A DNA stretch of 64,000 bases. Origin: Schmidtea polychroa. Its lineage: Eukaryota. The notes beneath the pieces were generated by a model. The model was not told the DNA's origin. It made no database searches and was given only the letters and a program-made list of their open reading frames with translations. Both the position numbers and the translations under genes were made by a program. This document shows positions 2,831 to 55,305 of this stretch, one piece after another; the first letter of the stretch is position 1; the number at the start of each line of letters is the position of its first letter. The stretch is from NCBI GenBank assembly GCA_044892525.1, contig CM097885.1:9860001-9924000 (forward strand), given 5' to 3'.

Positions 2831-3366
2831 GTTGTCATTGACCTTGAAAATTACTGATAATATATAAAAAATATAATAAATTAAAAAAAGTAATAATTAA
2901 AATAATATAGAAAATTTTAGGAAATATACTTTCAAAAGATAGGATTTAAAAATCAAAATTGACATTTATTGAAATATTTAAATAGCGTATATAAATGGTT
3001 ATTGGAGGCTTGATTTTTAAAATATTTTGAAATATTTTATTATGCTTCTAGAAGCTAATAAAGTAGCTTTATAAAAAATTTTAGTTTGTGTCATTTCGAA
3101 TTTTAAATGATATTTATTTTTTTTAATTTTAATTTTAATTTTAAATAAAACATTTAAAAGATACAGAAAAAGAAAGTATATCATTTATATTATATTATAT
3201 TTATAACCATTGAGAATTAAGAAAAAGAAAATAAAAGAAAGATAGAAATATATTTTTGGGAAGAAGATTGCTAAATTCCAGGAGGTTGACAAGGACTATC
3301 TTATAGTCGAAAATCTTTTCATTAAATGCATTATTCGCAGCAAAAGGCTTAAATTATCATTTTATT

Positions 3367-3416
<50 letters not shown>

Positions 3417-5581
3417 TTTATTTTTGAACGCAGTTTATTATTAATAAAAATTTCTTGCATGTAAATGTCTTGCATGTTTTATTTATAGACATATAAATTA
3501 TGTCTTAAATATAGAGGGTTTAGGATTTGTAACATAGAGACTTTTATTGTATGCATGTTGAATTCAAAACGACACCAATATTGTATTGTGACGTTGCTAT
3601 GATGACGTCATCCGTGACTTTTTAAGCGTCAACTGGTAAGTGCCAAAATAATGCCTACCTAGCTCTGGCTAAAAACGATTTAGACTGTTTAAAATAGGTT
3701 CTATACGTTTGCTATTACACATGCATATAGTACCATGGAATTGTTTTGGCGGTTTAGTTGTAGGAATTTTATATTAACCAAGAGAGGCCAGAATATTAAA
3801 TTTGGCACGAATTCGATCAATCTTGTCAGTGAAGAATTCACGAAATGCGTTAGCAAGAAAAGATGTATCTGGCTGGTCAGAAAGAGAATATGTGACAGTG
3901 CGGTAGAATTTAGGGTTTTCAAGAGCGAGTGGGGACAATTGTATAGGTGTTGATTGGGTGTGAAACTTCTGGAAACATTGTGTTTTTGTTTACTCAGTGT
4001 TTACGCGGTTCTATTAGCGGGGCCTTTTTGACAGGGGTCGCTTTTCCCAAGGCCCCCTATATAAAAGGCCCTTTTATTCGGGGCCATTTTGCCAAGGGCC
4101 CTTTTGATGGGCCACCGATATACAATGTATATTATACATATTATAAAGTTTGTAAAAATTCGAAGGTTTTTATAGGTTTGAAGGTTCAGGACTCACTATA
4201 AACCTTCGAGTATATGATCACCTCTTAAACACCTTTCGAATGAACCATCGTTCAATCAAATCCACTGGCGGGAACTCTAAAATTTTTTAAAAATTTAATT
4301 TTAGCATGATTCATCGCATGACACATAGAACCTTCGGAATTACTTTGAATGACTCATATGACATTGAAAATGGCCTTGAACGACTCATATGGCTCTGAGA
4401 ATGACCTTGAATGAGTCGTACAATGAGTCATGGTCTTTGTTTCAATGACCTTGAATGAGGCCTATAATGATAATAAAAGTAACTTTAACAATTGAAAATA
4501 ATTATATTAAATTAATTCATTGGTAAGAAATGCATTTTTAATTTTCTTAAGAAAGTGAAAGAATTAGTAGAAAATGTGGTATCACGTTATTTTACGCCAA
4601 ATGGTATGAAACTTATAGTCATTACTCTAGAATCGAGAATTCGTCTTTGCCAAAACTTTAATTTTCCTATAGTAGCTTTTACTTTATCGTGAACCTGAAA
4701 TATTGAAACTTCTTTGCCTTACAAAGATAGATTGAGATAATTTAAAACAGAAAGTATATCTGCTAAGTATGCCAATTTACAAAGCCATTTCCAATCATGC
4801 AAGCAATTTTTGAGAGTAAATTTGTCATCAAGAAAAGCCAACGAACATCAGTATGAAAAAGAAGTTATGGTTATTTCCCATTTCTTCACATATTTCAGTA
4901 AAAGGCCGTGAATTTAAAGGTCGGCCTTTAATATAATTTATAATTTGAATACTTTCATCTAAAACTTTCTGCAAATCATTTGGCATTTTCCGTGTTGCTA
5001 ATGCTTCTCTATGTATGCAGCAATGTGTAAATATAGAATTTGGAGCTACATTCTGAATTCTTTTTAACGACACCTTTATGAATACCAATCATGCTTTTTG
5101 CTCCATCTGTGCTTATTCCAATACATTTATTCCAATCAATTTTATGTTCTAATATAAATTTATTTATAAGATCAAAAATATCTTCTCCTGTTGTGTGGCC
5201 TGATAAAGGTTGGCAAAATAAAAGCTCCTCATGGATTTCCTGATTTTTTTCTAATCTTAATCTTTGCATCATCACCGATCAATTTTTCAGCCATTAGGTT
5301 AGCGGAAGGTTTAATCAGAGTTTCACCAACCGTATCGGCTACTCCATATTTTGCGATTAAAAGTGAAACCCGATATGAGACTTCTACGATTTTTTCATTA
5401 CCACAAACTCTAAATCCCCGCATTACCTTTTGAGACCGAGGTAAATTTTTACATAAATTTTCAAAAAAATCAATTGGTTTATCTTTGTATTGATTATAAT
5501 TTTTTTCAAAGTGCCATTTTAAATTTGAAGGCTTCATGCTTTCATTAACTAGACTCTGTTCACAAATAACACATAATGGTG

Positions 5582-5627
<46 letters not shown>

Positions 5628-5967
5628 TTTGAACGCAGTCTATTATTAATAAAAATTTCTTGCATGTAAATGTCTTGCATGTTTTATTTATAGACATGTA
5701 AATTATGTCTTACTTATAGAGGGTTTAGGATTTGTAACTTAGAGTGACTTTTATTGTATGCATGTTGAATTCAAAACGACACCAATATTGTATTTGTGAC
5801 AGGCTTATTTTCATCACCGGCCCATGTAAATCCACATTTAAGATATTCTTTGTCATATTTACGAATTTTTTCGACAATTTTTTAGTGGATGTTTTAAAAT
5901 TCATAGTTGATTCTCTCTGGTTTGATTTGATTTTAAAATCATTATTTTCTCGTTCTTCATTACTTTC

Positions 5968-6939
5968 AGTAGTGTGTTTATATCCCTAACCAACACAACC
6001 CCCCAACAAAACATACCTCCATTACGCCTAAACCATTAGAAAAACAACCTAAAACTTATACTTTTATAGTATTTTAACCCTATATTTTTGAAAACAACCA
6101 CCCTTAATACCCCTAACTGTTTTAATCAAACTCTAGAGTTGATCTTTATCAGATTATTGATTTTAAATTATATAAAACTTAAAAAATTGAAAAAGAATAA
6201 AAAATTTTATGAAATAGTAAAACTGCTCTGAGAGGACAGTGGTATTTTTTTTCCCACTGTCCTCTCAACAGTTTTTTTTGATCCGGATCATTTTTTTTTT
6301 ATTCAACCTCTTTCGTTTATCGAATCTCTTCCAATATACAAGCTGGCCAGACTCATACATCAGAATCAATTCGATAATAGCAGCACACCTTATTATTCGC
6401 TTCTCGCTCGAACACGATTTCATTGGCGTTTTAAGTGTGCTGCTCGAAAGTACAAATGAATTCGAAAGTGAATCCGAAAGAGGTCCGAAAACAACCAAGA
6501 AATAAATGTGCACATTATAGAATCGATCCGGGGGTGTTCGAAAGACTGGTGGCGATAATTACCGGTTCGCCACCACACCCGTTTCAATATTTTTTTTTCA
6601 TATTTATGTTTAAAAAATAATTAATTAATAAAATAAATAAAATATACAAGATTTATTTCCTAAGATACCCACACTATATATTTTTTTAATATTTATTTTC
6701 AAAAATTATTTTCTAGGGTTATATCTTTGTTTGCTTCAATTTCTAATTCAATTTTATAATATAATTTGGCATTACAAATATCTATTGGGTTTGATGTTTG
6801 AAGAGATTGAAAAACTATATCACCCCTACGATTTAAGTTTGCAATAGATCCTGAAGTTGGCGAGATTTTTAAAATATCATTTTTTTAATTTCATGAGTAA
6901 ATTCTTTATTATAATCAAGATTTAATTTATATATATTTA

Positions 6940-6978
<39 letters not shown>

Positions 6979-7855
6979 TTGTAAAAATGACAAAAATTTG
7001 AAACCTGATAGCGCAGTGGGCTAGACTGGCACAGTGGTTCAAATAGATAGCGGTTCAAATCACATCTGAGGTTAGTTTTTTTTCAACATAAAATAATATT
7101 AAAAATTTGAAAATAATATTGAAAATAGTGTGGGTATCTTATATTTATATTTTATTTTATTTATTTTTATTTTATTTTATATATTTTATTAATTAATTAA
7201 TTTTTTAAACATAAATATGAAAAAAAAAATATTGAAACGGGTGTGGTGGCGAACCGGTAATTATCGCCACCAGTCTTTCGAACACCCCCGGATCGATTCT
7301 ATAATGTGCACATTTATTTCTCAGTTGTTTTCGGACCTCTTTCGGATTCACTTTCGAATTCATTTGTACTTTCGAGCAGCACGCTTAAAACGCCGATGAA
7401 ATCATGTTCGAGCGAGAAGCGAATAATAAGGTGTGCTGCTATTATCGAATTGATTCTGATGTATGAGTCTGGCCAGCTTGTATATTGGAAGAGATTTGAT
7501 AAACGAAAGAGGTTGAATAAAAAAATGATCCGGATCAAAAAAACTGTTGAGAGGACAGTGAAAAAAAAAAAAAAAATTACCACTGTCCTCTCAGAGCAGT
7601 TTTACTATTTTCATAAAATATTTTATTCTTTTTCAATTTTTTAAGTTTTATATAATTTAAAATCAATAATCTGATAAAGATCAACTCTAGAGTTTGATTA
7701 AAACAGTTAGGGGTATTAAGGGTGGTTGTTTTCAAAAATATAGGGTTAAAATACTATAAAAGTATAAGTTTTAGGTTGTTTTTCTAATGGTTTAGGCGTA
7801 ATGGAGGTATGTTTTGTTGGGGGGTTGTGTTGGTTAGGGATATAAACACACTACT
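5968..7855. mobile_element. Non-autonomous mini-Polinton with ~730 bp TIRs and 6-bp TSD
   Basis: Starts AGTAGTGTG, ends CACACTACT, flanked by ACTTTC at 5962-5967 and 7856-7861; contains MCP gene fragment (6703-6929, near-identical to ~62165-62392) and tRNA-like cassette (7002-7083, like 63203-63287). Confidence 0.92.
7002..7083 (+). ncRNA. tRNA-like Pol III cassette copy in the mini-element
   Basis: A box TAGCGCAGTGG, two B-box-like GGTTCAAAT, AACCT/AGGTT closing stem, followed by a T run. Confidence 0.5.
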
Positions 7856-8559
7856 ACTTTCATCACTTTTAAAGTTCAAGATTTGAGCCAACGATCCATA
7901 ATGTTAAAATTGGGGATATGAAAAAATATTCGGCGTGACTATCAAAATCAATAAGACTTAAAAATCTAAAAACAATTTTTTCCTGGTTAATATCTAAAAT
8001 TAAAGTTGAAAAGGAATTATTATAAAACAGTTTGTTTAAATTTAAATAAAGATTAAATTTATAAAATAATTCTAAAAATAAATTTAAAACGAAGTGATTT
8101 ACATTTTAATTACATTTATAGAAAAGATTTACTTTATACTTTGATTTTTAAACTTAGTTTATTTTTAAAAATATTTTATTGATTCGAAAATATAAACAAT
8201 AAATAAAAAACAAGATTATATTTATATTTTTATGTATTAATAAAATTTTAATAAGACATTTTAATCTAATTAAATATTTTTTTATTTATCTTTTAATATT
8301 TAGATAATAGAAGATTGAAAAGGCCTGCGTACCCCTAAACACTGCCCTATATCAACAAGTTTCATTTAACTTGGCTAAATTTGTTATAAAACCTATATAA
8401 ACCTAGTCACAAATCATAACCATTTTAGTGGGAAATATTTATTAGAGTTCTGTACAAAATGCTGAAGAACCGATTAAATTTGAGACATTGTAATTTCAAA
8501 GGCAAAATGATGACTTATTCCTAAAAACTGTCGCTTCGAAAAAGTATTAAGATTGCAAA

Positions 8560-9000
8560 CAATTTAATTTTTGCTACTTTAAATCCGGATACAATTTGTT
8601 TAGATAAACCTTCCTTTATAAGACTTGCCAGACAATGATACCAAATAATTTGTAGGATATGTCAGATTATGAACCCACTCATCATTTGTATAGTAGGAAA
8701 TTAGACTCTGTTATTGGTAAATTCAAGGACGAAAGGAGAGGGGTTAAATTATGATGAATGGGTCTTTCTTCATCCGAAGTGTTACAGACTTTTGAGAGGA
8801 ACAGAAAAACATGAAAGCAAATGTATTTAGATTAAAATTTACCAACATTGACTGCTACAACGAAATTATAATTCCAAAGGTTCGTCAGAAACGCATTGGA
8901 ACAAAAATTCATCAAATTTTAAGATTTAAAACAAAAAAATAATGACAAGTGAGTTTGGTCGATAAGAACCAGAGTTTTGCATACGGACATTATTACATAG
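8560..9000 (+). pseudogene. Decayed Polinton-type protein-primed DNA polymerase C-terminal fragment
   Basis: Frameshifted translation DYEPTHHLYSRKLDSVIGKFKDE...EWVFLHPKCY...KIHQI...SFAYGHY follows the pPolB C-terminal pattern. Confidence 0.65.
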
Positions 9001-10171
9001 CAATTTCTGAAGAATGTTATGATACATTAATATATGGTATGGTGATCTTGAAAAAACAATTCTTGGAAAAACATTTATTTGACTTCTATAAACTCATTGT
9101 GAAAGTTTGTCAATGTTATTTAACCCTTTTATACGGAGTGTACAATATATTGTACACAGTTTTGTGTGCTGAATATCTGTTGTACCTTTTCGAAAATATA
9201 ATGTGAGAAGTACTTTTTAAGAAAATTGAAATTTGTTCTAGTACATTTTAATAATTAAATTATTTTTTTATTTTTTTGCATAATTTGAGTCCCCTTACTA
9301 GGTTTGATGGTCTAGATAATTAATTTACCCACAGAATTAATTCCCGAATGAAAGGGTTAATAAAACTTGTATATAAATTGTGTCATTTTAGTTATCTTTG
9401 TAAATAAGAATTCAAAAACATTAATTATCATTTATTAAACATAACCAATCAATACAATATTGTCCACATGTAACTGCTAATAGTTCTGGATATCTAATTC
9501 TATTTTAGACAATATGTGTTGATAATTTCGAGAATTTTGGCACTAGCAGAGATGGATAACAGAGCGGAATAACCAATGTGGTCAAACACAACTCTTTCCG
9601 GCTTCAAATAGACTGCTAGGCAATATTTTTAACCTAGATTTGAGGATTGAGTATTAATCCAATGGCTCACCTCAAAACTGACTTCCCTGTTCTGTGATAG
9701 TACAAAATTAAGCACAAATGAACAACTATGGTAAAGTGAAGTCTCGACCGCTAACAGTAATAAAAGCCAACCTATCAATGTCATCAAATTTTACAAAAAG
9801 TTTAACAAAATTTAAATAACTTTATCAAATTATGAAAGTATTGATATTTACAATTTTATTTATCTTAATTTTTGAACTATGTATAAATATTCAGAAATGA
9901 ATTCGTAAATAAAAACATTTTAAAAAATACATATAAGTTAAAGAAATTTGATTCTGTTTGTTTTAATATATAAATTTAATCTAAACCACACAGAAGTTAA
10001 TTTAAGATTTTATAACTTTACTGCACAAGAAAATCTTATATTTTACAGTAATATATAAAGTAGAATTACAATATATTAAAAAAATAATGTTTGTTAATAT
10101 AAATTTTTACAGATTTACATATTTAAATAAATTTTGATTATTAATTAAAATTATTAATATTCAGAAAGGAA

Positions 10172-25760
<15,589 letters not shown>

Positions 25761-29601: not shown

Positions 29602-32600
29602 AGTAGGTAGTTAGTAGCCCGCTGCAACAATTACCCCCCCCCCCGGGGGGGGGGGTTAAATTGTTGCACGATTTTTTTTGTTGCACGATTTTATTACGCA
29701 ATTGTTCCACACTATAGTCTCGATGGTCCTGGGATTTTCAATACAAAAATTTTTTTTTCTATACAAAAACGATGGTCCTGGGATTTTCAATACAAAAAAT
29801 TTTTTTTTTCAATACAAAAATCCGACTACCACTAAAAAAGCATGGAATTTTCAGACTATAGTGAGGTGGGTCTCGATGGTCCTGGGATTTTCAATACAAA
29901 TAAAATTTTTTCTATACAAAAATCCAACTACCAATAAAAAAGCATGGAATTTTCAGACTATAGTGAGGGGGTCTCGATGGTCCTGGGATTTTCAATACAA
30001 AAAATTTTTTTCTATACAAAAATCCGACTACCACTAAAAAAGCCAAGGATTTTTCAGACTATAGTGAGGTGGGTCTCCTTGGTCCTGGAATTTTCAATAC
30101 AAATAAAATTTTTTCAATAGAAAATTCGACTATCAATAAAAAAGCATGGATTTTTCTAGTTCAATTAAGGTGGGTCTCCTTGGTCCTGAGAAAAAGGTGG
30201 TCTACACTAAAAAACGTGGTCCTGAGAATTTCAATACAAAAAGGCAGTATACACTAAAAAAGAGTGGCAATTTAAGGTCTCAGGATATTTTCAATACAAA
30301 AATCCGATTATCAATAAAAAGCATGGATTTTTCTAGGCCAATTAATGCGGTCTCCTTGGTCCTGAGAAAAAGGTGGTCTACACTAAAAAACGTGGTAAAT
30401 TTTTTCAATTAAAGTAAATAATGGTCCAAATTTTTCAATTAAAGTAAATTATGGGTCTAAAAAATTAAATTAAAGTAAATAATGGTCCAAATTTTTCAAT
30501 TAAAGTAAATAATGGTCCAAATTTTTCAATTACATTAAATTATGGTTCTAAAAAATTAAATTACAGTAAATTATGGTTCTTAAAAATTAAATTACAGTAA
30601 ATAATGGTCCAAATTTTTCAATTACAGTTAATTATGGTTCTAAAAAAATTAAATTAAAGTAAATTAAGGTTCAAATTTTTCAATTAAAGTAAATTATGGT
30701 CCAAATTTTTGAATTACAGTAAATAATGGTTCAAATTTTTGAATTACAGTAAATAATGGTTCTAAAAATTGAATTACAGTAAATTATGGTTCTAAAAATT
30801 AAATTACAGTAAATTATGGTTCTTAAAAATTAAATTACAGTAAATAATGGTCCAAATTTTTCAATTACAGTTAATTATGGTTCTAAAAAATTAAATTAAA
30901 GTAAATTAAGGTTCAAATTTTTCAATTAAAGTAAATAATGGTCCAAATTTTTGAATTAAAGTAAATTATGGTTCAAATTTTTAAATTAAAGTAATGAATG
31001 GGCTCAAATAACTAAATTAAGGTTCTAAAAAATTAAATTAAAGTTAATTAAGGTCCAAATTTTAAAATTAAGTAATTAATGGTCAAAAATTTTAAATTAA
31101 AGTTAAATAAGTAAATTAAAGTAATAATTTTTAAATAAGTAATGTAATAAGTAAATTAAAGTAAGATTTTAAAATTTATTAACAAAAAGTTGAAATAATA
31201 GAAGGTGTTTGAGAATTGAAATTTTTTAATGAAAATTTTTATGAAATAATTTTTTAAGTAATTTTTAATAGAAATTTTTATGGAATAATTTTTTAAGTTA
31301 ATTTTTAATGGAAATTTTTATGAAATATTTTTCAATGATAATTTTAGATGGAAATTTTTAAGATAATTTTTAATGAAAATTTCTATGAAATATTTTTCAA
31401 AGACAAATTTTAATAATAATTCAACAACAAACCAACAACTTAGTACCAACAACCAGTAACCTATGAACATGTATTAACAATCAGATACCTACAACTAGTT
31501 ACTAACAACCTGCTACCAAGTACTTACAATCAGTTACCTGCTACCAAATACTTTCAACATGATACCACGTACTAAATAACTCTCAAACAACCAGATACTT
31601 ACAACCAATTACCAGATACCAAGTACCTACAACTAGTTACTAACAACTAGTTACCTGATACTAAGTACCTACAACCATCTAACAAGTACTAACAACCAAA
31701 AACAAGCAACCAACTAGGTACCAAGTACTAACAACCGACAACAACCACCTACCAACTAGCTACCACCTACCCATTAACTAGTTACAACCAGCTAACTAGG
31801 TACTAGATACCAAGTACTAACAACCAGTTACCTGCTACTAAGTACCTACAACCACCTACCTATTAACTAGCTACAACCACCTACCAACTAGCTACCACCT
31901 ACCCATTAACTAGTTACAACCAGCTAACTAGGTACTAGATACCAAGTACTAACAACCAGTTACCTGCTACTAAGTACCAACAACCACCTACCAAGTACAT
32001 ACAACCAACATCAACCAGGTACTAAGCATTAATTACCAACTACTAAGTACCTACCAAGTACCTACAACCACCTACCCATTAACTAGTTACTAAGTACTAT
32101 CAACCAACTAACTACTAGATACCAAGTACTAACAACCAACAACAACCAGGTACTAATCATTAATTACCAATTACTAAGTACCTACAACCATCTACCAAGT
32201 ACATACAACCAAGTACTAAGCATTATTAACCAACTACTAAGTACCTACAACCGACTAGCTACCACCTACCAAGTACCACCAACAACGAGATACCTACAAC
32301 TAGATACTAACAACTAGTTACCAGATACCTACTACTCACAGCCGTCAACAACCAGGTACTAAGCATCATCAACCAAGTAATAACAACTAGATACCTAGTA
32401 CTTACAACCAGATGACCACATGAAATTATTGGTTAAATAAGTAAATTAATGTCTAATTTTAAAATTAAGTAATCAATGGTCTAAAATATTAAAGTTAAAG
32501 TCAATTTAAGATTAAAGTTTTCTGGGATTTTCAATGTTAATTTTAGATGCAAATCTTCGTCAATCAATGAATGACCACATGAAATTATTAGTTAAATATG

Positions 32601-32896
32601 AATATAATTAGTTGTTTAGTAAATTATGGTGTAAAATTAAGAAATAAAGAATAATTAGGTAAATTAAGGAAAATTAAGGTTCAAAATTTAAAATTAAGTA
32701 ACCAATGGTTCAAATTTTAAATTAAAGCTAAATAAGTAAATTAAAGTAAGAATTTTAAATTTATTATCAAAAGATTGAATAACCACCAACTTTTTTTGAG
32801 AAATGTAATTTTTAATGAAAATTTAAATGGAAATTTTTTTTAAGTTAATTTTAAATGTAAAATTTTTTAATTTAATTTTTAATGGAAATTTTAATG

Positions 32897-32966
<70 letters not shown>

Positions 32967-33401
32967 TCAACAGTTCCCAACAATCGGTTACTAAATATTT
33001 TTAACTAGATGCTAACAAATACTTTCAACATGATACCAAGTACTAACTCTCAAACAACCAGATACCTACAACTAGTTACTAACAACCAACTAAGTATTCT
33101 TTATTGTATTTTATGAAATGTTTTTAAATTAATTTTTTATCTGTCTTCAAAAATATGTTTAATTACAATCAATAGAAAACCTTTTCAAAATGTCTAAATT
33201 TAACAAACATGTTGACTTTCATCAAAAAACCACAACTCAATCACTTTAAAACACCACGTGAAATTCAAAATAATTTAAATTACAATGAAATACTAATGAA
33301 TTCTAATTTACAAAAACATCTTCTTTTAAATGATAACTTATTATTGCATCGTAAAATCACATTCAATAAATACTTATTGTTGATCAGTTTTATTATATAT
33401 A

Positions 33402-36400
33402 CTCTGAGTTTATCCGACAGGATGTTTTGACCCCCCTAAGGGTACAGGTCGTAAGGGTACTGGTCGTAAGGGTATTAGTCGTAAAGGTACTAGTCGTAAG
33501 GATATTGCTAACTCTCAACCCCCACCTACCCATTAACTAGCTACTAAGTACTAACAACCAGTTACCTGATACCAAGTACATACAACCAACATCAACCTGT
33601 TACTAAGCATTATCAACCTACAACTATATAACAACAATCAGTAAACAACACTCTACCAACTATTAAATACAAGATACCAACAACTAGATACCAACAATCA
33701 ACTAACCACACATAAAAATAATAGCAATTAAATACAAAATATTCTTCATCACATACACTATCTTCTTATCAAAATCAGATACCAACTACCAACTACCAAG
33801 TACTAACAACCAACTACCTACAACCAACAACTATGTACTAACAAATTGATCTTTAAAAGAAAAATACTCATCACTTGAAAAATTAGATGGAAAATTAATT
33901 GAACTCAAGACATCAATAACTTGGTAAAAATTGATTAAATAATTGCAAAAATTTAAATTTACTCAAAATAAATATCATAAAAATTTAATTAATAGACAAG
34001 AAAGAATTCTATTCATTAATCATCCAGTAAATAAAAAAATACTGATCATTCAAGTTGAATCAACAAAGATAATAAATTAATAAGATAAGATTTATTAGAT
34101 AATTGATTTAGATTGAATAAATTAATTGAAATAAAATTAATTTTAATTATTTTTTTTAAAAGTAATACATGTACTCAAATTGATTGACTGATTGCTCAAA
34201 ATATTCAAAAAAAAACAGTAGAAATTCATTAAAATTAACAAAGTCAGCAATCTACAATAAAAATAATTATCATTAAATTCCAAGAGAGACTAGATAACTA
34301 ATGATAACATCTAATAAACCAGTAAATTCATTTAAATGACAATAATTGGTATATTCAAGCGAATTCTCTAATAAAATCATCTAAAAAGAATCATTTTCCC
34401 CTAAATATATCAATATTTAAAGATTAGTATTTTATCGATAAATATCCTTAAAAGGTTATATATTTACCTCAGACTAATAAGATTGCTTAAAATCCCTTTA
34501 AATGACTATAATTCTAACTTTAATTCCTATTATCACGAATATTTCCCTATAAAACATGTAAAATAAATTGGTCATTAACCCTAAATAATTTATAAAATCT
34601 AGTGATAAAACTGGTTATAATTAAATTTTTATTCTAAAAATAAATCACTCTATTTGAAATTTAAAATAATTATTACTGTACAATATAATTGACTAGGTCC
34701 CATTGAAAGATTAAATTTATCCATTCAATAAAATATATTTCTTCAAATGATCATTTTTACTGATATTCAACCGATTTAATTACTAATTAAAATCAATCGA
34801 TATATTTCTTCTAATAAAGATCAATTTTATTTAGTTGTTGTCGATGTTTTAAGTCCATATTTCTAAACTTTTGTCATTCTCCGCCTAAATAAAGATAAAA
34901 ATAAATTAAAGTTGATATCAATCCCAATTATCTGTAAAAATTTCATTGTCAAAACCAAGTAAATCGATCATTAACCCTACTTAATAAAACATAAGTCTAA
35001 ATTAATATACAATGAATTAATCACAACCTAATAAAACGATATAATTTCAAATTATTATTGATTCATAACTGACTAATGTATTGACATTTCCCTTAAAACA
35101 TTGATATTTTACCAACATCATACTTAAAAAATCATATATTCCCATCTTAACCCATCCTTCATTAAATTTAACCGACTATATCTCCTTTACAATGATATAT
35201 TCCTACCTTATCCGATCTCTCATTAAATTTAACCAACTATATCCCCTCAAAAGATCATATTTTCCCACCTTATTCGATCCCTCATTAAATCTAACCGACA
35301 ATATCCCATCTTATCCGATCTCTCACCAAATATTTCTACCCTTTTAAACATCTAACCGAATATATCCTTCAATTCTATCCACTTGAATCCTCCTTTAATT
35401 CACTCAATCCTCTTAAAATCCTTAGAGAACTTCAAAAATATGACTTAATTGTTACAGACACCAAATATTCTTCCATTGAAATAATTTAGTAGCTATGTAG
35501 TAAGAGTTCACTAAAAGATCAAAAATCAATATTTTCTACAAATATTTACCATCAAATACTGGAGATGAAATATATTGTTTGATGATAATTCTTCATCGAT
35601 TCAACCAATCATTTTCAAGCAATAACAGCAAACTAAATTTCTGTATATCCTACAATAATTATCAAGTAAATTTTAAGTCCTTGATAAAGTTAACTGGTTT
35701 CTTAGCTTATGTTTTTTAAAGTGCATCAATGTGTAAATATTCTTAGAAAATTATTGAAAAATTATTTATTCAAATGCATTACAAAGTCATCAAAAATCAC
35801 TTAATTATTAACCTAATTGTCAATGAAATTAATTTTTATTTAAAAACTATTCAATAAAATACAACTAATTATCAAGAAATTAATTAAATTTATCAATTAA
35901 ATTTATCAGTAAACATGAAATTCTTAGAAAATTATTCAATATCCTCATAAAAATTTATCCACTTGATTATTGTAAAAACTCTAATTATTAACATTGAAAA
36001 TAAATTTTATTTAAAATTAAAAAACCAATCAATAAAAATACATTCAATTATCAAGAAATTAATTAAATTTACCTTAGAATTAGCATTAAATTACAGAAAT
36101 TCACAAAAATAATGGAAATTCACAAAAATGATAAAAATTCACAAAAATAATAGAAATTCATGAAAATGATAGATATCCACGAAAAATTACGGAAATTCAT
36201 GAAAATATTAGAAATTCACAAAAAATGATGGAAATTCATGAAAATGATAGAAATTTACTTGAATAAAACCATCAACTCTAAAAATTATCAATGCCTTAAA
36301 CAACAAATTTGTCTAAATAATCATTCAAATAAAAGCATTAAATACCTTTACGACTAATACACTTACGACATGTTGAATGTGAGTAGTACCCTTGTGAGCA

Positions 36401-36443
36401 ATACCCATAGGGGGACAGAATATTTTTTCGGATAAACTCAGAG
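33402..36443. mobile_element. Nested TIR unit in TA context, left-arm copy
   Basis: TA-CTCTGAGTTTATCCGA ... TCGGATAAACTCAGAG-TA with subterminal GTCGTAAGGGTACT repeats. Confidence 0.7.
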
Positions 36444-37927
36444 TATATATTAATTAACTCATTCAAATTTATCATTGAATCAGTAAAATTATCATAAATT
36501 TCGATAAAAATTCTAATGTGGTAAGCAATGAAAAGAGAAATATTCTTTAAACTTAGATAAAACTAACAATGAAGGTGGTAAGAATCATTAAAGTGAGAAA
36601 ATTATTCATTACTCGATGATAAATTCAAATGGATGAAAATAATTGGTAGAATAATTTATTAATGGGCATAGATAAGAAAAAAGGTTGATAAGAATGGAAA
36701 TATATTAATTGAATTTATTTAAAATTATTTCATAAAATTCATAAAAAAAAACTTTTAAAAGAAATATTTGTGGAGATGTTTTAGGTGAAAATTAATCAAA
36801 ATCGGCGGAATATAATTGATTAAATATCGAGGATGGGGGTTATAATTAATGGAAAATCAATGGGATACAAATGATTAAATAGTGGAAAATCCGGGAATAT
36901 AAGTGATTAATTAATGGAATATTGAGAATCGGAGGAATATCAATGAGAAGGATATATAATTTAAACTAGTTTATTACATAACAAGCCGCGACTAGTTTAT
37001 TACATAACAAGCTGTGAATGGTATTTTACCAACATTTTTAAAGTATGTAATTTAATTTTAATTTTATTTTTAAATTGTACATATTTTGAATATCAAGCTG
37101 TGAATGGTATTTTACCAACATTTTTAAAGTATGTAATTTAATTTTAATTTTATTTTTAAATTGTACATATTTTGAATATCATTCTATTGTTTAATTCCGA
37201 TAATAAGTATAAAAAGTCTATAATGATTAATAAATTAATATCTTGTTAACATTTACCAGAGAATTTAAAAAACTTTACTTAAAATTTAGTGAAGTATTTA
37301 ATTTTGATTGTACTTTATAAGACATATATTTGAGTATTAACTTATTTTGATTGAAGTATCACATTCAATATTATGATTTTTTTTTCTAAATTGAAATATT
37401 TTAGTGTAAAATAGTTAATTTGATAATAAATAGAATACAATATTAAAGGACTTTTTGAAAAAAAAGTTACTTTCTACTGCCTAATCAATAAGTTCAAAAA
37501 GTTTAGAACTGTTAATAAATCAATTTCTTATTCGCATTTACATATAAATTTTTTATTTTTAAATTAAAGTATTAAATTGATGATTTAATTTTAATTGTAT
37601 TTGAATGATACATTTAATTTACTTTGATTGAAAGGAGTAATATAATTCATATTATGATATTTGTTTTCGAAATATTTAGTGTAGAATAGTAAATTTAATA
37701 ATATATAGCTATTATTACAAGTACTTATACAAAAAAACACTTTTTATTTCTAATGTTTTATTCCATCAATAAGTTTAAAAGTATGTAACTGGTAATAGAT
37801 TAATTTCTTATTTACATTATTCGAGAATTTGAAAAACTTATAAAATTTATATTTTTAAAATTTAATTTTGATTGTATTTTCTAAGACTTATATTTGAATA
37901 TTTAACTTATTTTGAATGAAAAGGGTA

Positions 37928-38016
<89 letters not shown>

Positions 38017-38698
38017 CTTTTATGATAATTGTTTTTGAAATACATAATGCAAATTAAAACATTTTAGTAATAATTTGCTATTATTTTAGAATTTATTTTA
38101 GTCAAAAATTAAAAAAAAGATCTAATCAATAATTCTCAATAAATTATCATTCACGGCTTGTTATGTAATAAACTAGTTTAAATTATATATCCTTCTCATT
38201 GATATTCCTCCGATTCTCAATATTCCATTAATTAATCACTTATATTCCCGGATTTTCCACTATTTAATCATTTGTATCCCATTGATTTTCCATTAATTAT
38301 AACCCCCATCCTCGATATTTAATCAATTATATTCCGCCGATTTTGATTAATTTTCACCTAAAACATCTCCACAAATATTTCTTTTAAAAGTTTTTTTTTA
38401 TGAATTTTATGAAATAATTTTAAATAAATTCAATTAATATATTTCCATTCTTATCAACCTTTTTTCTTATCTATGCCCATTAATAAATTATTCTACCAAT
38501 TATTTTCATCCATTTGAATTTATCATCGAGTAATGAATAATTTTCTCACTTTAATGATTCTTACCACCTTCATTGTTAGTTTTATCTAAGTTTAAAGAAT
38601 ATTTCTCTTTTCATTGCTTACCACATTAGAATTTTTATCGAAATTTATGATAATTTTACTGATTCAATGATAAATTTGAATGAGTTAATTAATATATA

Positions 38699-41600
38699 CT
38701 CTGAGTTTATCCGAAAAAATATTCTGTCCCCCTATGGGTATTGCTCACAAGGGTACTACTCACATTCAACATGTCGTAAGTGTATTAGTCGTAAAGGTAT
38801 TTAATGCTTTTATTTGAATGATTATTTAGACAAATTTGTTGTTTAAGGCATTGATAATTTTTAGAGTTGATGGTTTTATTCAAGTAAATTTCTATCATTT
38901 TCATGAATTTCCATCATTTTTTGTGAATTTCTAATATTTTCATGAATTTCCGTAATTTTTCGTGGATATCTATCATTTTCATGAATTTCTATTATTTTTG
39001 TGAATTTTTATCATTTTTGTGAATTTCCATTATTTTTGTGAATTTCTGTAATTTAATGCTAATTCTAAGGTAAATTTAATTAATTTCTTGATAATTGAAT
39101 GTATTTTTATTGATTGGTTTTTTAATTTTAAATAAAATTTATTTTCAATGTTAATAATTAGAGTTTTTACAATAATCAAGTGGATAAATTTTTATGAGGA
39201 TATTGAATAATTTTCTAAGAATTTCATGTTGACTGATAAATTTAATTGATAAATTTAATTAATTTCTTGATAATTAGTTGTATTTTATTGAATAGTTTTT
39301 AAATAAAAATTAATTTCATTGACAATTAGGTTAATAATTAAGTGATTTTTGATGACTTTGTAATGCATTTGAATAAATAATTTTTCAATAATTTTCTAAG
39401 AATATTTACACATTGATGCACTTTAAAAAACATAAGCTAAGAAACCAGTTAACTTTATCAAGGACTTAAAATTTACTTGATAATTATTGTAGGATATACA
39501 GAAATTTAGTTTGCTGTTATTGCTTGAAAATGATTAGTTGAATCGATGAAGAATTATCATCAAACAATATATTTCATCTCCAGTATTTGATGGTAAATAT
39601 TTGTAGAAAATATTGATTTTTGATCTTTTAGTGAACTCTTACTACATAGCTACTAAATTATTTCAATGGAAGAATATTTGGTGTCTGTAACAATTAAGTC
39701 ATATTTTTGAAGTTCTCTAAGGATTTTAAGAGGATTGAGTGAATTAAAGGAGGATTCAAGTGGATAGAATTGAAGGATATATTCGGTTAGATGTTTAAAA
39801 GGGTAGAAATATTTGGTGAGAGATCGGATAAGATGGGATATTGTCGGTTAGATTTAATGAGGGATCGAATAAGGTGGGAAAATATGATCTTTTGAGGGGA
39901 TATAGTTGGTTAAATTTAATGAGAGATCGGATAAGGTAGGAATATATCATTGTAAAGGAGATATAGTCGGTTAAATTTAATGAAGGATGGGTTAAGATGG
40001 GAATATATGATTTTTTAAGTATGATGTTGGTAAAATATCAATGTTTTAAGGGAAATGTCAATACATTAGTCAGTTATGAATCAATAATAATTTGAAATTA
40101 TATCGTTTTATTAGGTTGTGATTAATTCATTGTATATTAATTTAGACTTATGTTTTATTAAGTAGGGTTAATGATCGATTTACTTGGTTTTGACAATGAA
40201 ATTTTTACAGATAATTGGGATTGATATCAACTTTAATTTATTTTTATCTTTATTTAGGCGGAGAATGACAAAAGTTTAGAAATATGGACTTAAAACATCG
40301 ACAACAACTAAATAAAATTGATCTTTATTAGAAGAAATATATCGATTGATTTTAATTAGTAATTAAATCGGTTGAATATCAGTAAAAATGATCATTTGAA
40401 GAAATATATTTTATTGAATGGATAAATTTAATCTTTCAATGGGACCTAGTCAATTATATTGTACAGTAATAATTATTTTAAATTTCAAATAGAGTGATTT
40501 ATTTTTAGAATAAAAATTTAATTATAACCAGTTTTATCATTAGATTTTATAAATTATTTAGGGTTAATGACCAATTTATTTTACATGTTTTATAGGGAAA
40601 TATTCGTGATAATAGGAATTAAAGTTAGAATTATAGTCATTTAAAGGGATTTTAAGCAATCTTATTAGTCTGAGGTAAATATATAACCTTTTAAGGATAT
40701 TTATCGATAAAATACTAATCTTTAAAGATATAGTTATTTCAGGGATATTTGATGCTTTTTAGATGATTTTAATGAATTATTTGTAATAATATGAATTAAG
40801 GGTAGAAATATAGTCATTTAAGGGATTTTAAGGAATCTTGTTAGTTTGAGGTGAATATATGATATTTAACAAGTACTTATCGATAAGATACTAATCTTTA
40901 AATATTGATATATTTAGGGGAAAATGATTCTTTTTAGATGATTTTATTAGAGAATTCGCTTGAATATACCAATTATTGTCATTTAAATGAATTTACTGGT
41001 TTATTAGATGTTATCATTAGTTATCTAGTCTCTCTTGGAATTTAATGATAATTATTTTTATTGTAGATTGCTGACTTTGTTAATTTTAATGAATTTCTAC
41101 TGTTTTTTTTGAATATTTTGAGCAATCAGTCAATCAATTTGAGTACATGTATTACTTTTAAAAAAAATAATTAAAATTAATTTTATTTCAATTAATTTAT
41201 TCAATCTAAATCAATTATCTAATAAATCTTATCTTATTAATTTATTATCTTAGTTGATTCAACTTGAATGATCAGTATTTTTTTATTTACTGGATGATTA
41301 ATGAATAGAATTCTTTCTTGTCTATTAATTAAATTTTTATGATATTTATTTTGAGTAAATTTAAATTTTTGCAATTATTTAATCAATTTTTACCAAGTTA
41401 TTGATGTCTTGAGTTCAATTAATTTTCCATCTAATTTTTCAAGTGATGAGTATTTTTCTTTTAAAGATCAATTTGTTAGTACATAGTTGTTGGTTGTAGG
41501 TAGTTGGTTGTTAGTACTTGGTAGTTGGTAGTTGGTATCTGATTTTGATAAGAAGATAGTGTATGTGATGAAGAATATTTTGTATTTAATTGCTATTATT

Positions 41601-41915
41601 TTTATGTGTGGTTAGTTGATTGTTGGTATCTAGTTGTTGGTATCTTGTATTTAATAGTTGGTAGAGTGTTGTTTACTGATTGTTGTTATATAGTTGTAGG
41701 TTGATAATGCTTAGTAACAGGTTGATGTTGGTTGTATGTACTTGGTATCAGGTAACTGGTTGTTAGTACTTAGTAGCTAGTTAATGGGTAGGTGGGGGTT
41801 GAGAGTTAGCAATATCCTTACGACTAGTACCTTTACGACTAATACCCTTACGACCAGTACCCTTACGACCTGTATCCTTAGGGGGGTCAAGACATCCTGT
41901 CGGATAAACTCAGAG
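38699..41915. mobile_element. Nested TIR unit, mirror copy in right arm
   Basis: Reverse complement of 33402-36443 with about 150 extra bp near 40726-40880. Confidence 0.7.
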
Positions 41916-42350
41916 TATATATAATAAAACTGATCAACAATAAGTATTTATTGAATGTGATTTTACGATGCAATAATAAGTTATCATTTAAAAGAAGATG
42001 TTTTTGTAAATTAGAATTCATTAGTATTTCATTGTAATTTAAATTATTTTGAATTTCACGTGGTGTTTTAAAGTGATTGAGTTGTGGTTTTTTGATGAAA
42101 GTCAACATGTTTGTTAAATTTAGACATTTTGAAAAGGTTTTCTATTGATTGTAATTAAACATATTTTTGAAGACAGATAAAAAATTAATTTAAAAACATT
42201 TCATAAAATACAATAAAGAATACTTAGTTGGTTGTTAGTAACTAGTTGTAGGTATCTGGTTGTTTGAGAGTTAGTACTTGGTATCATGTTGAAAGTATTT
42301 GTTAGCATCTAGTTAAAAATATTTAGTAACCGATTGTTGGGAACTGTTGA

Positions 42351-42438
<88 letters not shown>

Positions 42439-44779
42439 CATTAAAATTTCCATTAAAAATTAACTTAAAAAATTATTTCATTAAAATTAACTTAAAAAAT
42501 TTTACATTTAAAATTAACTTAAAAAAAATTTCCATTTAAATTTTCATTAAAAATTACATTTCTCAAAAAAAGTTGGTGGTTATTCAATCTTTTGATAATA
42601 AATTTAAAAATCTTACTTTAATTTACTTATTTAGCTTTAATTTAAAATTTGAACCATTGGTTACTTAATTTTAAATTTTGAACCTTAATTTTCCTTAATT
42701 TACCTAATTATTCTTTATTTCTTAATTTTACACCATAATTTACTAAACAACTAATTATATTCATATTTAACTAATAATTTCATGTGGTCATTCATTGATT
42801 GACGAAGATTTGCATCTAAAATTAACATTGAAAATCCCAGAAAACTTTCATCTTAAATTGACTTTAACTTTAATATTTTAGACCATTGATTACTTAATTT
42901 TAAAATTAGACATTAATTTACTTATTTAACCAATAATTTCATGTTGTCATCTGGTTGTAAGTACTAGGTATCTAGTTGTTATTACTTGGTTGATGATGCT
43001 TAGTACCTGGTTGTTGACGGCTGTGAGTAGTAGGTATCTGGTAACTAGTTGTTAGTATCTAGTTGTAGGTATCTCGTTGTTGGTGGTACTTGGTAGGTGG
43101 TAGCTAGTCGGTTGTAGGTACTTAGTAGTTGGTTAATAATGCTTAGTACTTGGTTGTATGTACTTGGTAGATGGTTGTAGGTACTTAGTAATTGGTAATT
43201 AATGATTAGTACCTGGTTGTTGTTGGTTGTAACCATAATTAACTGTAATTGAAAAATTTGGACCATTATTTACTGTAATTTAATTTTTAAGAACCATAAT
43301 TTACTGTAATTTAATTTTTTAGAACCATAATTTAATGTAATTGAAAAATTTGGACCATTATTTACTTTAATTGAAAAATTTGGACCATTATTTACTTTAA
43401 TTTAATTTTTTAGACCCATAATTTACTTTAATTGAAAAATTTGGACCATTATTTACTTTAATTTAATTTTTAGAACCATAATTTACTTTAATTTTTAGAA
43501 CCATTATTTACTTTAATTGAAAAAATTTACCACGTTTTTTAGTGTAGACCACCTTTTTCTCAGGACCAAGGAGACCCGCATTAATTGGCCTAGAAAAATC
43601 CATGCTTTTTATTGATAATCGGATTTTTGTATTGAAAATATCCTGAGACCTTAAATTGCCACTCTTTTTTAGTGTATACTGCCTTTTTGTATTGAAATTC
43701 TCAGGACCACGTTTTTTAGTGTAGACCACCTTTTTCTCAGGACCAAGGAGACCCACCTTAATTGAACTAGAAAAATCCATGCTTTTTTATTGATAGTCGA
43801 ATTTTCTATTGAAAAAATTTTATTTGTATTGAAAATTCCAGGACCAAGGAGACCCACCTCACTATAGTCTGAAAAATCCTTGGCTTTTTTAGTGGTAGTC
43901 GGATTTTTGTATAGAAAAAAATTTTTTGTATTGAAAATCCCAGGACCATCGAGACCCCCTCACTATAGTCTGAAAATTCCATGCTTTTTTATTGGTAGTT
44001 GGATTTTTGTATAGAAAAAATTTTATTTGTATTGAAAATCCCAGGACCATCGAGACCCACCTCACTATAGTCTGAAAATTCCATGCTTTTTTAGTGGTAG
44101 TCGGATTTTTGTATTGAAAAAAAAAATTTTTTGTATTGAAAATCCCAGGACCATCGTTTTTGTATAGAAAAAAAAATTTTTGTATTGAAAATCCCAGGAC
44201 CATCGAGACTATAGTGTGGAACAATTGCGTAATAAAATCGTGCAACAAAAAAAATCGTGCAACAATTTAACCCCCCCCGGGGGGGGGTAATTGTTGCAGC
44301 GGGCTACTAACTACCTACTGTAGTGGAAATAATGGTACGCAAACATAATGGTATGCAGACATAATGGTAATGGACATAATGGTATGCGGAAATAATGCTA
44401 GAGGACAAAATCGTACAATCAAAATGGAACTAGGACTAAATGGTACAATGTATAAAATAGTATTAATTTAAGTCTATTTAAATAAACCTATTTTATAAAT
44501 GTAGTTAGCTAATTGTTGCCCTAACAAATATCGCATTAATTTTGAAGGAATAGATTAATGATTAGAAAAGTAAGTTGCCTTTATTTAGCATGCATGTCTG
44601 GGTCTTTTCGTCTTTCGTTTAATAATAATGAAAAACAATAGAAAAATCTAGACTAGTCAAACAAAAATATACAAATTATAATTAATAAATAATTTATAAA
44701 ATTTAATGTCAAATATTTAAGACTATATGCCTACTATAGGCCTTACAATGTTTCGTTTATGTTTATACGTTTTTGCAAT

Positions 44780-48308: not shown

Positions 48309-49629
48309 TATGACCATGATTAAATATTCATACGACAGACCATTAGTTGGGTCACAATTTTAGTGGTTAATGGTGTTCATTGGGTCATGGGTCGAAATTG
48401 GACATGTTCACAAGACTCTAAGTTTGAAAGATGAACACCCTTAAACACACAACTAAAAGTGATATAGAAAATATTTTTAGTGATTCGGAATTAGGAAAAA
48501 ATAAATTTTTTTTATTTTTGACTAGAAACTAGATTTAAAAGTAATTTTTACCAAAACCTTGTGAACACACTGGTTCAGTTGATTATAGTTCATCAATGGA
48601 AAAAATATAATAAATTTAAGGCATTCAGATGAGAAAAATACAAATCATACTACAAAATGTTGGCTTAGTCAAAGGCACAAAGCGACTTTTCAAAAGCTTT
48701 TCAGCCAAATTTTGATATTTTTCCGTCAAAATATTTTTTTTAAAGTTAATGACAATGTATAATTTTTAAAAAATTTTGTAAGTGACCTTCCTTACTTCTC
48801 TGTGTGATCACTCATTAGTAAGAGAGCCAAAAGATTTCGCGGCAACATTTTTTTATAATTAATTTAAACATGTTTTGAAAAATATTTTAATATTTCTAAG
48901 TGATTACGCGCCACAACATATAAAAGTTCACTTCAATCATTTTATTTTTAAAAAGTCAATTTAACAATAACAATTTTCCAAAGATAGATCAACTGGTCCC
49001 ACTTTGTCAATTTTTGTCCGATTTAAAAATAACTTTCACAATTTAGATAAAATATTTTACGAAATCTTGAAAATAATTTTCAATTTACTGCAAATTGACT
49101 TTTAAAATATTATTAAAATACTTTTAATTATTTAAAAGATTCGATTGCTCATTATTTGAATAAAGACTTACTGTTAAACTATATTATTATTACAAGCTGT
49201 TACCTGTTAAAAATGACGAAGAAATTTTTTAGTTTCGATATATTAAAATCCGGGCTGAAAATAAGTAGTGAGGAATCTATGCACCCCAGCACCCCCACCC
49301 TCAAAAAAAACAGCGCTATTGACCCATATTTTCCACATTTATATGCTTTTTTACCCCATATTCTTCACTTTTTTTAACTTTTAAACTTTGTCCCCTATTG
49401 CCATTAACCCTTAATTTCTTCCCTTAAAAGTAAAAAAGTTCGGAATAGATGTATTTATAGATTAGTAATTCCGAGAAAAGGTAACGGGGTGCATAGATTC
49501 CTCACTACTTGGTCTTAAGGATTTAAGGATTTAAAGGATTTAAGGATTTAACGTTATAAGGATTTAAAAATTAATAAAAATTAATATCAAAACCAAAACA
49601 TCGTATCCAACCAAAAAATTCTTTTAAAA

Positions 49630-52600
49630 ATGGAAGCTATTTTCAATTGTGAAATTTGTGAAAAAAATTTTAAAAATAAAACTGCTTTAACATCTCATAA
49701 AAAATCAAAAGACCATTTAATAAAAGCTAACACACTAGATGACACTAATTCCAAAATCTGTACTAAATGTAAGGATAGATATTTATTTTCAGGTTATAAG
49801 AAACATTTTAAAAATTGTATTGGAGTTCCTAAAAACAGAGAAATATTCGAATGTTCAGCATGTGGAAAAAAGATGAGGATAAAATCTTTTTACTTAAGAC
49901 ACATAGAAGATTGTGGTCTTGAAGCAAAAGATTCTGATTCAAACTCAATGACTGAAAAAGCTGAAAAACTGGAGTTTAATTGGGATGACTTCAATCACAC
50001 CGATGTAATTGCAGAAGTAAAACGAGGACCCAGATCAATCATGCAATATATAAGAGAAAATAAAAAAAAAATAATATCATCAATGGATGATGCTATAAAA
50101 AAATTTGGTAGATCAAGATTTAATGTTATAAAAGTTAAATTTACAGGAAATGCAAAATACTGGAGAGGAGATGATTCGATCGCAATGCCTCTAGATGTAA
50201 AAATTGAAACCTCATATAAATATTTATTTTCTACAAAAGCAGGAAATAAACTTGTTAATGATATAGCTAAAGAATTGGAAGAAAAACAAGAACAGGTGGA
50301 ACAAGAACTAGGAGAATCTAATTTAAGATTCCACTCTTTTCAAAACATAGAGATTGAATACTGGAGAGGTGCACCACCAAATCCTAAATCTTTTATTCAT
50401 ACACCATTCACCTCCAACCATGTTATAAATGTACAGAATAAAGATAATAAATGTTTTCAATGGTCAATACTTGCACACTTACATCCTCAAGCAACTAACC
50501 CACAGAGAGTTCAAAAATATGAAGAATATGAATCTGAATTAATATATCCAAAAGATTTTTCCCACCCAATGAAAATTGAAGATGTTCCAGCATTTGAAAA
50601 ATTAAATAATCTTAAAATTAATATTTATCAATTCATTCCAACCAAAATTACAAAAACTAGAAAAAATAAAAATTATAAACACATTATTCCTATTTACATT
50701 TCTAATATGGAAATCTCAGATGAAAAGAGAGAAGTAGATCTTTTAATATTAGAAGAAGGTAAACCAGATGAAGACTTTGATGGAGAAGAATATGGTGAAG
50801 AGGTTCAAAGCGTTCACCCGAAAAGAGAAGCAGAAGAAGGCATTTCATTAGAACCAGAAGCAGAAAGCACTGCGTCCGGAGGCACTATGTTAGATAAAAA
50901 ACTTCATTATATCTTAATAAAGAATTTTCAAAGTTTTATGAAAGGAAACACACTCATTCGTGGAGGCATATGTTGTAAAAGATGTTTATATCATTCAAGT
51001 TCAAAACTTGCTGCTATTAAACATGAGAGACTCTGTTGTAAGAATCAACCTGCTTTAATAAAAATGCCACACAAGAAAAATGCTAATATGAGGTTTAAAA
51101 ACTATTCCAATCTATTAGAAGCATTGGGAGTGGTTTATTGTGATTTTGAAGCTATAAATGTAAAACTAAGACGAACAAAAACTAATACTGTAAAACTAAC
51201 AAAACAATTACCCTCTGCTTATAAAATGTTTTTCAAAAGTAATTATCCAGAACTTGTAAAATCTAGAGAATATTCATTTAGGGGAACTTCTGACAAAGAG
51301 ACTCTAGACCATTTTGTTGAAACTTTAAATAATCTAGAACATGAATTATATATAATATTAAAATCCAACTTTCCTATGAATTTTTCAGAAGAACAAGAGG
51401 AAGAATATAAAAATGCAACACACTGCTGGATGTGCAAACAAGAGTTTGAGGATGAGGAGTCAACTAGTGAACTAAAGGTTCCTGACCATGATCATTTTAA
51501 AATAGAAAATAATTACAGAGGAGCGGCCCATAAAAATTGTAATCTCAATTGTAAAAAACCAACACACATACCATTTATATTTCACAATCTTTTTGGCTAT
51601 GATATTCACCTGTTCATTAAACATCTAGCTGCAAATGCTAAAAACTCTTTCAAGGTTATTGGACTTACAAAAGAAAAATATAAAAGCATTCAATATGGAT
51701 GCTTTAAGTTTTTGGACTCGTTAAATTTCTTAGGGATGTCTTTGGATGGGATTGCTAAAACTATGAACCCTGAGGATTTTAAATATACAAAAGAACATGT
51801 GTTATTAAAAAACAATATTCCATTAGAGGAATATAATACCTGTCTAGCAAAAGGAATCTATCCATATGATTATATAGACTCCTTTGAAAAATATAATGAA
51901 TTACTCCCACCCCAAGAAGATTTCTTTTCTGTTTTAACACAATCAGGGATTTCTGATCAGGAATATTCCCGTGCACTTAAAATGTGGAATCTTTTCAACT
52001 GTAGAAACCTTGGAGAATATACTGACATGTATCTTTCCTTAGATGTTTATATCTTAGCTGATTGCTTCGAGACATTTTCAAAAGCTTTTGAATTAAAACC
52101 TTATAATTATATAACCGCTCCCTCTCTAGCTTGGGATATATTATTATATAGCATATGGACCGATGAAGACATAGCAGAAAGAAATAAAACCATTGAATTA
52201 TTAGTTGACCTTGATATGTTTAATGTATATAAACATAATATTAGAGGAGGTATTTCTTCAGTACAAGGGAATAGAGAAATAATTGCTAATAATTTTACAA
52301 CTCTTTATCCTAAATTTTTCAAAGATACTGATGCTCTATATGTAGAAATAACAAACCCAGAAGATCGTGAGGAAATACTGGAAGGTCTTTCTAATCCTTC
52401 TGAAATAATGTATATAGATGCAACAGCTTTATATGCAGGAGTAATGACTCAATATCTTCCAATTGGCAAGTTCACCTGGGAAGAGCCCACTGAGGAATTA
52501 ATACAAGAAATTCTAAAAACACCAAAGAATTCACAATATGGATATGTCATAGAATGCGATCTTGAATATCCCAATGAAATAAAATCCAGGACAAGATTCT

Positions 52601-54012: not shown

Positions 54013-54036
54013 GAATTAGAATTTTAACACTATAAA

Positions 54037-54591: not shown

Positions 54592-54685
54592 AACCAACGA
54601 TATTTAATTTTTTAATAATAAAATGTCGACAATTAATTTAAGCAACTATAGCAACCTGATCTACTTTTTTAAAAATACACCCATT

Positions 54686-55297: not shown

Positions 55298-55305
55298 TTT
55301 AATAA

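Follow-up and report, generated by a model that had tools for sequence, protein, structure and literature searches.

A short Polinton-like insertion in Schmidtea polychroa joins the subterminal body of a neighbouring Polinton to a different outer terminus

The window analysed here, a 64,000-nucleotide stretch of Schmidtea polychroa contig CM097885.1, contains a 1,888-bp mini-element at 5968-7855 that begins with (AGT)2, ends with (ACT)2 and is flanked on both sides by the hexamer ACTTTC (5962-5967 and 7856-7861). The perfect ACTTTC target-site duplication named in the original prediction is thus borne out. A match at all six positions would arise by chance with a probability of about 0.0008 given the local composition, and this element is the sole case in the window of an AGTAGT...ACTACT pair with a 6-bp duplication. 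We regard it as almost certain that 5968-7855 is a real insertion, and it is a young one, with its perfect 6-bp duplication and no difference between its two arms in the outer 235 bp.

The element splits a decayed, putatively Buster/ZBED5-like hAT transposase gene on the minus strand (4560-5961), judged by frame comparison and Atlas clusters, the first ~40 bp of which appear to sit beyond the far side of the insertion. The top Atlas matches of the host frame are FAM200/ZBED5 clusters at 0.93-0.95, and the frame carries CxxH and STDG motifs that we take to be those of a hAT transposase of the Buster/ZBED5 type; all five frames tried returned no Pfam family. The element had been placed inside a hAT transposase ORF, and it does interrupt a hAT-like frame, but the host is a pseudogene with stops and frameshifts and holds no open ORF. 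A ~215-bp sequence containing (TTA)n is found twice nearby (3378-3592 and 5583-5800, 96% identical), one of the copies breaking into the hAT frame, with related pieces at 11737-13185; this is probably another small repeat.

The same window contains a full-length-looking Polinton (49264-64000), hereafter the neighbour, that served for comparison. Its left terminal inverted repeat (TIR) of ~268 bp begins AGTAGTGAGG, and its right TIR starts near 63930 and then leaves the window, so that its own target-site duplication and intactness lie outside view. Pfam searches recognize a protein-primed DNA polymerase of family B (pPolB; E 2e-13), an A32 ATPase (2e-8), an rve integrase (8e-12) and a double-jelly-roll capsid protein (1e-26). 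A PLA2-like domain (Pfam E 6e-9) occupies the N terminus of the integrase (59696-61105), and a separate ORF at 58373-58888 gives a weak match to adenovirus protein X. Sequence search recovered 41 homologues of the Polinton capsid and no match to a solved structure, and capsid queries yielded no confirmed locus among 1, 67 and 233 candidates.

Read inward from its right end, the mini-element consists of a terminus, a folded module, an AT-rich spacer, one tRNA-like unit, a (TA)n junction and a 228-bp capsid fragment, an order that is the neighbour's own minus ~790 bp. The right outer terminus (7621-7855, minus strand) is the exact inverse of 5968-6202. Next to it lie the folded module (7226-7620, plus strand), the AT-rich spacer common to the neighbour (7084-7225, plus strand) and the tRNA-like unit (7009-7083, plus strand), which corresponds to the neighbour from 63211 onward and has an A-box-like motif, two B-box-like motifs and a T8 run, judged by the A-box/B-box consensus. 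A (TA)n-rich junction (6931-6989) replaces the ~790 bp of the neighbour that hold the capsid start, two tRNA-like units and a 98-amino-acid ORF. Beyond it comes the 5' fragment of the major capsid gene (6703-6930, minus strand), without a start codon and broken by a 1-bp indel near 6879.

The left arm opens with an outer terminal block, block A, that begins AGTAGTGTG (5968-6127, plus strand) and is followed by linker B (6128-6202, plus strand); together these 235 bp are identical in both arms and unalignable to the neighbour's end. An inverted copy of the module (6203-6600, minus strand) and a diverged copy of the AT-rich spacer (6601-6712, minus strand) complete the arm, the last 10-11 nt of the latter overlapping the capsid fragment in a microhomology junction.

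Where the element and its neighbour share sequence, they are nearly identical. The capsid fragment matches 62165-62393 at 225 of 228 positions (98.7%), with three substitutions and one indel, close to the four or so differences in ~225 bp that had been anticipated. The expected common subterminal region was likewise recovered at 96-97% identity: the tRNA-like unit and spacer (6990-7218) agree at 219 of 225 positions, with 6 mismatches and 8 gaps, and the module (7219-7620) agrees at 386 of 402, with 16 mismatches and 7 gaps. The structured module indeed lies in both TIRs of the mini-element and only at the right end of the neighbour. The pPolB and rve integrase genes of the neighbour are absent from the mini-element, which has no complete gene and is TIR over ~80% of its length. 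By its sequence features it is a non-autonomous Polinton/Maverick derivative; such elements are reportedly mentioned in the founding Polinton paper and in Repbase. The description as MITE-like fits loosely: MITEs are short (under about 0.8 kb) and non-coding, and at 1,888 bp with a gene fragment the element exceeds that definition.

The similarity between the two elements stops within a few bases past the module's last hairpin, a sharp break beyond which the outer sequences differ. The original prediction held that the outer ~230 bp are unlike the intact element's TIR past the first 7 nt, and at the level of shuffled controls they are, with at most a faint likeness in composition. When the outer ~235 bp were compared with the neighbour's left TIR after removal of the shared first 7 nt, 49-168 of 500 shuffles scored as well across four scoring schemes; with these 7 nt kept, 11-178 of 500 were as good, and against the neighbour's right end (63857-64000) the figure was 96-110 of 500. 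The two termini may retain a very old homology, as the global alignment including the first 7 nt was beaten by just 11 of 500 shuffles. The folding of the terminus is no better than that of shuffles (z -1.0), and its sequence pattern has no match in viral contigs. One metagenome match (L001, 482-501) was rejected as a 20-nt chance match, without other similarity, on a bacterial contig whose ORFs include HTH and toxin-antitoxin-like ones.

Adjacency of ~97%-identical non-coding DNA to DNA that cannot be aligned leads us to infer a replacement event in one lineage, and very probably the terminus was replaced by recombination. With two copies to compare, the change may have occurred in either lineage. 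An account without exchange would have both termini descend from one ancestor by fast evolution beside a conserved body. Their similar lengths (235 versus 247-268 bp), their C-richness on the same strand and a faint sign of colinearity (11 and 22 of 500 shuffles in the best pair of tests) are in line with this account, but the adjoining AT spacer is ~97% identical, the synonymous-rich capsid DNA is 98.7% identical, and point mutation would not render a sequence unalignable within a few bases; we consider common descent of the two ends very improbable. The proposal that sister Polintons exchange termini is thus upheld as far as the mosaic goes, a shared body (96-99% identical) meeting a different end at a sharp break.

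The TIRs of the mini-element, each ~745 bp, are not uniformly alike. Their outer 235 bp show no differences, the module has 11 substitutions and 4 gaps between arms, and the innermost ~70 bp are clearly diverged. The contrast between outer block and module is significant by Fisher's test for substitutions (p 0.009) and for all events (p 0.002), a gradient weakened by 5 of the 11 substitutions lying at or beside homopolymers. The first difference between the arms falls at 6203, where homology to the neighbour also has its limit. The left ~745 bp repeat the right end in inverted form and join the capsid piece at 10-11 nt of microhomology, and the left arm also retains part of a stretch that is present in the neighbour and missing from the right arm. 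Other copies in public contigs frequently carry the left-arm letters at 6254 and 6322 (47% and 34% of the depth summed over run X3), which are therefore not new mutations, and the left-arm letter at 6424 is private. The left arm was not freshly copied from the right one. The arm differences, together with letters common to other copies, suggest that the two-arm form predates the young insertion or that two templates were used, with the outer block homogenized last. The idea that TIRs grow or shrink by copying one end onto the other stays plausible and has a published precedent in the passages cited from PMC8547959, but not in the form of a fresh left-arm copy of the right.

As the best explanation overall we lean, by a modest degree, towards a mobile mini-element built from the right end of a sister Polinton, with a regained, inverted left end and a mosaic terminus. 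The element would be a non-autonomous derivative of a Polinton/Maverick that is abundant in this genome, and its recent insertion, itself directly visible, was presumably carried out by a Polinton integrase supplied in trans. It would represent the parent's right end (capsid 5' piece, third tRNA-like unit, module and terminus), with everything leftward lost. The left end would have been regained as an inverted copy of the right end joined at the 10-11 nt of microhomology seen at the junction, possibly through a template switch in protein-primed strand-displacement replication. Its parent would come from a sister sub-family that shares the body and differs in the outer end, at least one lineage having swapped its terminus by recombination at the module edge, where the mosaic is seen. 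Polymerase would be supplied in trans. End pairing in replication, perhaps by panhandle repair, would keep the outer 235 bp identical, and the inner arms would drift or derive from different copies, in keeping with the observed gradient. Since a fresh copy-back would leave the two arms identical, this model requires later drift or a second template. Within it, a full-length parent with the mini-element's terminus likely exists, and it is probable, by a slightly smaller degree, that the element moved as a mini-element.

Alternatively, a full-length sister with ~745-bp module-containing TIRs and the same terminus could have integrated at this site, two later deletions in place removing its interior, in which case the mosaic is real and nothing ever moved as a mini-element. 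Junction microhomology suits deletion repair equally, an outward-to-inward gradient of divergence is expected for any long TIR, Maverick TIRs span 46-1,447 bp in the passages cited from PMC8097293, and no second mini copy is present among the contig pieces listed (32 of 22,603). Such a history nevertheless needs two losses (by comparison with the neighbour, ~12.6 kb and 0.79 kb) within a young insertion that has no differences in 235 bp and a perfect target-site duplication, and in the only full-length element available the module is confined to a single end. We judge deletion in place unlikely and prefer the mobile mini-element.

Public sequence data place the element in a wider setting. Part of it is contained in 20 of the 24 public runs listed (9 studies), and 8 of the 24 contain at least half of the sampled words; the runs consist of contigs throughout, and none of the 24 is recorded as RNA. 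Contigs from 4 of the 24 runs were aligned to 5640-6925, the left half of the element with its flank (15,459, 2,580, 4,373 and 134 records). Summed contig depth is not copy number, and run X1 may be the source sample. Block A reaches 0.3-1.5 million in X1 against 3,000-21,000 on the hAT flank, and 72,000-146,000 in X3 against 200-2,900. Linker B lies below block A and above the hAT flank in both X1 and X3. In run X8, which carries another organism label, terminus depth is not above the hAT flank and module depth is. The many contigs that match terminus and linker, at depths far above the flank in X1 and X3, indicate that the terminus of the mini-element is a repetitive family.

In three of the four runs, block A continues past 6127 into sequence unlike the mini-element (five contigs in X3, two in X13 and one 255-nt contig in X8, among the 24 of 384 loose ends listed), and this following sequence is absent from the window. 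Among the same loose ends, one X13 contig enters the module at 6199 from other sequence. Terminus and module are each joined to other sequence in contigs, and each therefore has more than one partner. The 6703 junction is bridged by none of the pieces listed (32 of 22,603), which include no full-length carrier of the terminus. One contig each from X3 and X13 ends its match at 5966, as expected for insert-free hAT copies, the letters further on not being displayed. Two readings of these data were set aside: transcription of the module from its higher depth in X13, a run only guessed to be RNA and consisting of contigs, and contig indel fractions as the frequency of the element's capsid allele, since short contigs clip at homopolymers.

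The varied partners of the terminus bear on a further possibility, that the capsid piece and module were captured, in a Pack-like manner, by a gene-less element from a different AGTAG-ended Polinton family, with no autonomous element joining this terminus to this body. The meeting of block A with other inner sequence after 6127 in three of four runs speaks for such capture, as does a third AGTAG-type terminus in the same window, borne by a gene-less palindrome. The supposedly captured parts, however, keep the neighbour's order and their place beside the end, and in both arms the module adjoins one and the same linker despite the differences between its copies. Capture appears distinctly improbable, more so than deletion in place. 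An assembly or read artefact, such as a fold-back chimera, could be imagined in a genome rich in long palindromes, but the perfect target-site duplication splits a collinear hAT reading frame, the arms differ inside, and 8 of the 24 public runs contain at least half of the sampled words; such an artefact is scarcely credible.

Aside from its position in both arms, the module stands out by its predicted structure, with an RNA folding z of -7.7 in the right-arm copy. In the neighbour, folding is strand-biased (z -8.5 versus -4.5), and the last hairpin shows one compensatory pair change between the two elements. Strand bias and the compensatory pair hint at a function of the module in the full element rather than at a need in the mini-element. 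The module has no assigned Rfam family: no Rfam match, of 19 in the mini-element and 8 at the neighbour's end, reaches threshold, the best being a tRNA match of 26.7 of 29 bits at 62720. By eye, the module was also considered as a hammerhead, which was dropped for want of Rfam support, and the module pattern has no match in viral contigs or in prokaryote contigs. ARAGORN calls no tRNA gene, including in the unit at 7009-7083. Between its capsid gene and right end, the neighbour carries three outward-facing tRNA-like units (62491, 62725 and 63211) with A/B-box-like motifs and T runs, the second of them being the one with the 26.7-bit tRNA match.

It had further been suggested that the content retained by the mini-element may define the minimal cis requirements, and this finds no support. 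Only one copy is available, and the module is present in both arms because of how the left end was made, so that its doubling follows from the copying geometry. Moreover, the AGTAG-ended palindrome (29602-44319) carries a third terminus of this type for which BLAST finds no similarity to the module or to the other termini; the three termini in the window share just AGTAG and a C-rich stretch. This palindrome is 14.7 kb long and gene-less, has AGTAGGTAG ends with a 5/6 flank match, and is inserted in a 15/31-bp minisatellite.

Comparison with known systems places the element among Polintons/Mavericks and adintovirus-like elements, here as described in the passages cited from each source. Mavericks have (AGT)2 ends, 6-bp target-site duplications, TIRs of 46-1,447 bp and lengths of 12.7-24.6 kb (PMC8097293). 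The mini-element resembles them in its (AGT)2 ends, 6-bp duplication and ~745-bp TIR, and the neighbour in its pPolB, rve integrase with PLA2-like domain, A32 ATPase and double-jelly-roll capsid (PMC8097293, PMC8502044); the mini-element differs in being 1.9 kb long, against 12.7-24.6 kb, and in having no complete gene (PMC8097293). Truncated EMALE virophages are likewise shortened integrated elements whose TIRs are said to have regenerated after truncation, but they are 5-15 kb virophages of a flagellate, and a change of terminus type is not among the passages used (PMC8547959). Panhandle end repair in adenovirus and PRD1 is a proposed route for restoring end homology in protein-primed replicons, a popular but unproven model for which direct evidence is lacking according to the cited part of PMC11886824.

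Other reports concern module exchange. Nematode Polintons include near-identical elements that differ in one module by recombination; there the polymerase changed and the TIRs are conserved, whereas here the termini differ (10.1101/2023.08.22.554363). C. elegans Polintons with species-specific 744-bp TIRs also show a related body with a different TIR, but there the difference lies between species, whereas here it separates sisters of a single genome that are 96-99% identical (10.1101/2024.01.15.575659). In Polisuviricotina, replication and capsid modules reassort and some genomes have two replicases; that account is about replicase classes, and its section 13 does not describe terminus exchange (10.64898/2026.10.13.758929). 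PolB-less polintons of butterflies have ~2-kb gene-containing TIRs over inner sequence and are mobile without polB; unlike the mini-element, they are large and carry cargo (10.1101/2025.02.07.637071). End regeneration, module exchange, gene-containing TIRs and polB-less mobility are thus already in print for related elements, as far as the cited passages go. The literature search, through listings and the cited passages, found no terminus exchange between near-identical Polintons; supplementary element tables could contain cases. New here are arms that are identical in the outer 235 bp and differ inward, a terminus family that joins other inner sequence, and a second polymerase tail.

Polinton replication and integration have so far been modelled mostly from sequence. 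Near-identical bodies with unrelated ends, small passengers and a visible homogenization boundary constitute a natural data set on the importance of individual terminal bases, on possible co-segregation of ends with polymerase types and on the reach of end repair. In repeat annotation, searches based on TIRs would break up a single body into several families and overlook such mini-elements. As a single locus, the mini-element mostly repeats themes known from related elements.

The second polymerase tail is an open frame of 184 codons (54037-54591, plus strand) directly after pPolB, and its product is 59% identical (98/165) to pPolB residues 1285-1449, with dS 0.81 and dN 0.30. Tail and pPolB have in common a C-terminal extension that is missing from six of seven aligned homologues. 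Relative to these outgroups the tail is no more distant than pPolB and is closer in five of seven, column counts that show only that it has not decayed. A score comparison of tail and pPolB (128/150) was discarded as biased, its matches having been found with the tail itself. Homologue searches returned no closer full-length polymerase, and the 70-amino-acid fragment P0068 is 92% identical to the tail over the matched stretch. From its sequence, the tail is possibly what remains of a sister polymerase after a left-arm exchange, and a conserved accessory gene fits about as well.

A broader scheme would have sisters swap a replication arm (terminus/origin plus polymerase) onto a common capsid/integrase body, the opposite end afterwards receiving a copy of the new terminus; 54037-54591 would be the remnant of the displaced polymerase, and the mini-element would keep the other terminus. 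We hold this scheme only tentatively, and that the terminus was exchanged together with the polymerase is doubtful. In nematodes pPolB was exchanged with TIRs conserved (10.1101/2023.08.22.554363, passages cited), and joint transfer of ends and polymerase is therefore not the default. If true, ends and polymerase would be matched, exchangeable origin-enzyme pairs, each with its own gene-less passengers.

The neighbour's own ends have further structure. Within the left TIR at 49264-49510 (mirrored from 63953), the terminal 24 bp recur as a perfect inverted copy; each end thus holds a unit of 247 bp, delimited by AGTAGT...ACTACT, with the potential to fold back or to behave as a tiny element. 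Just inside the left TIR and before pPolB, short tandem TTAAGGAT-type repeats occupy 49511-49570.
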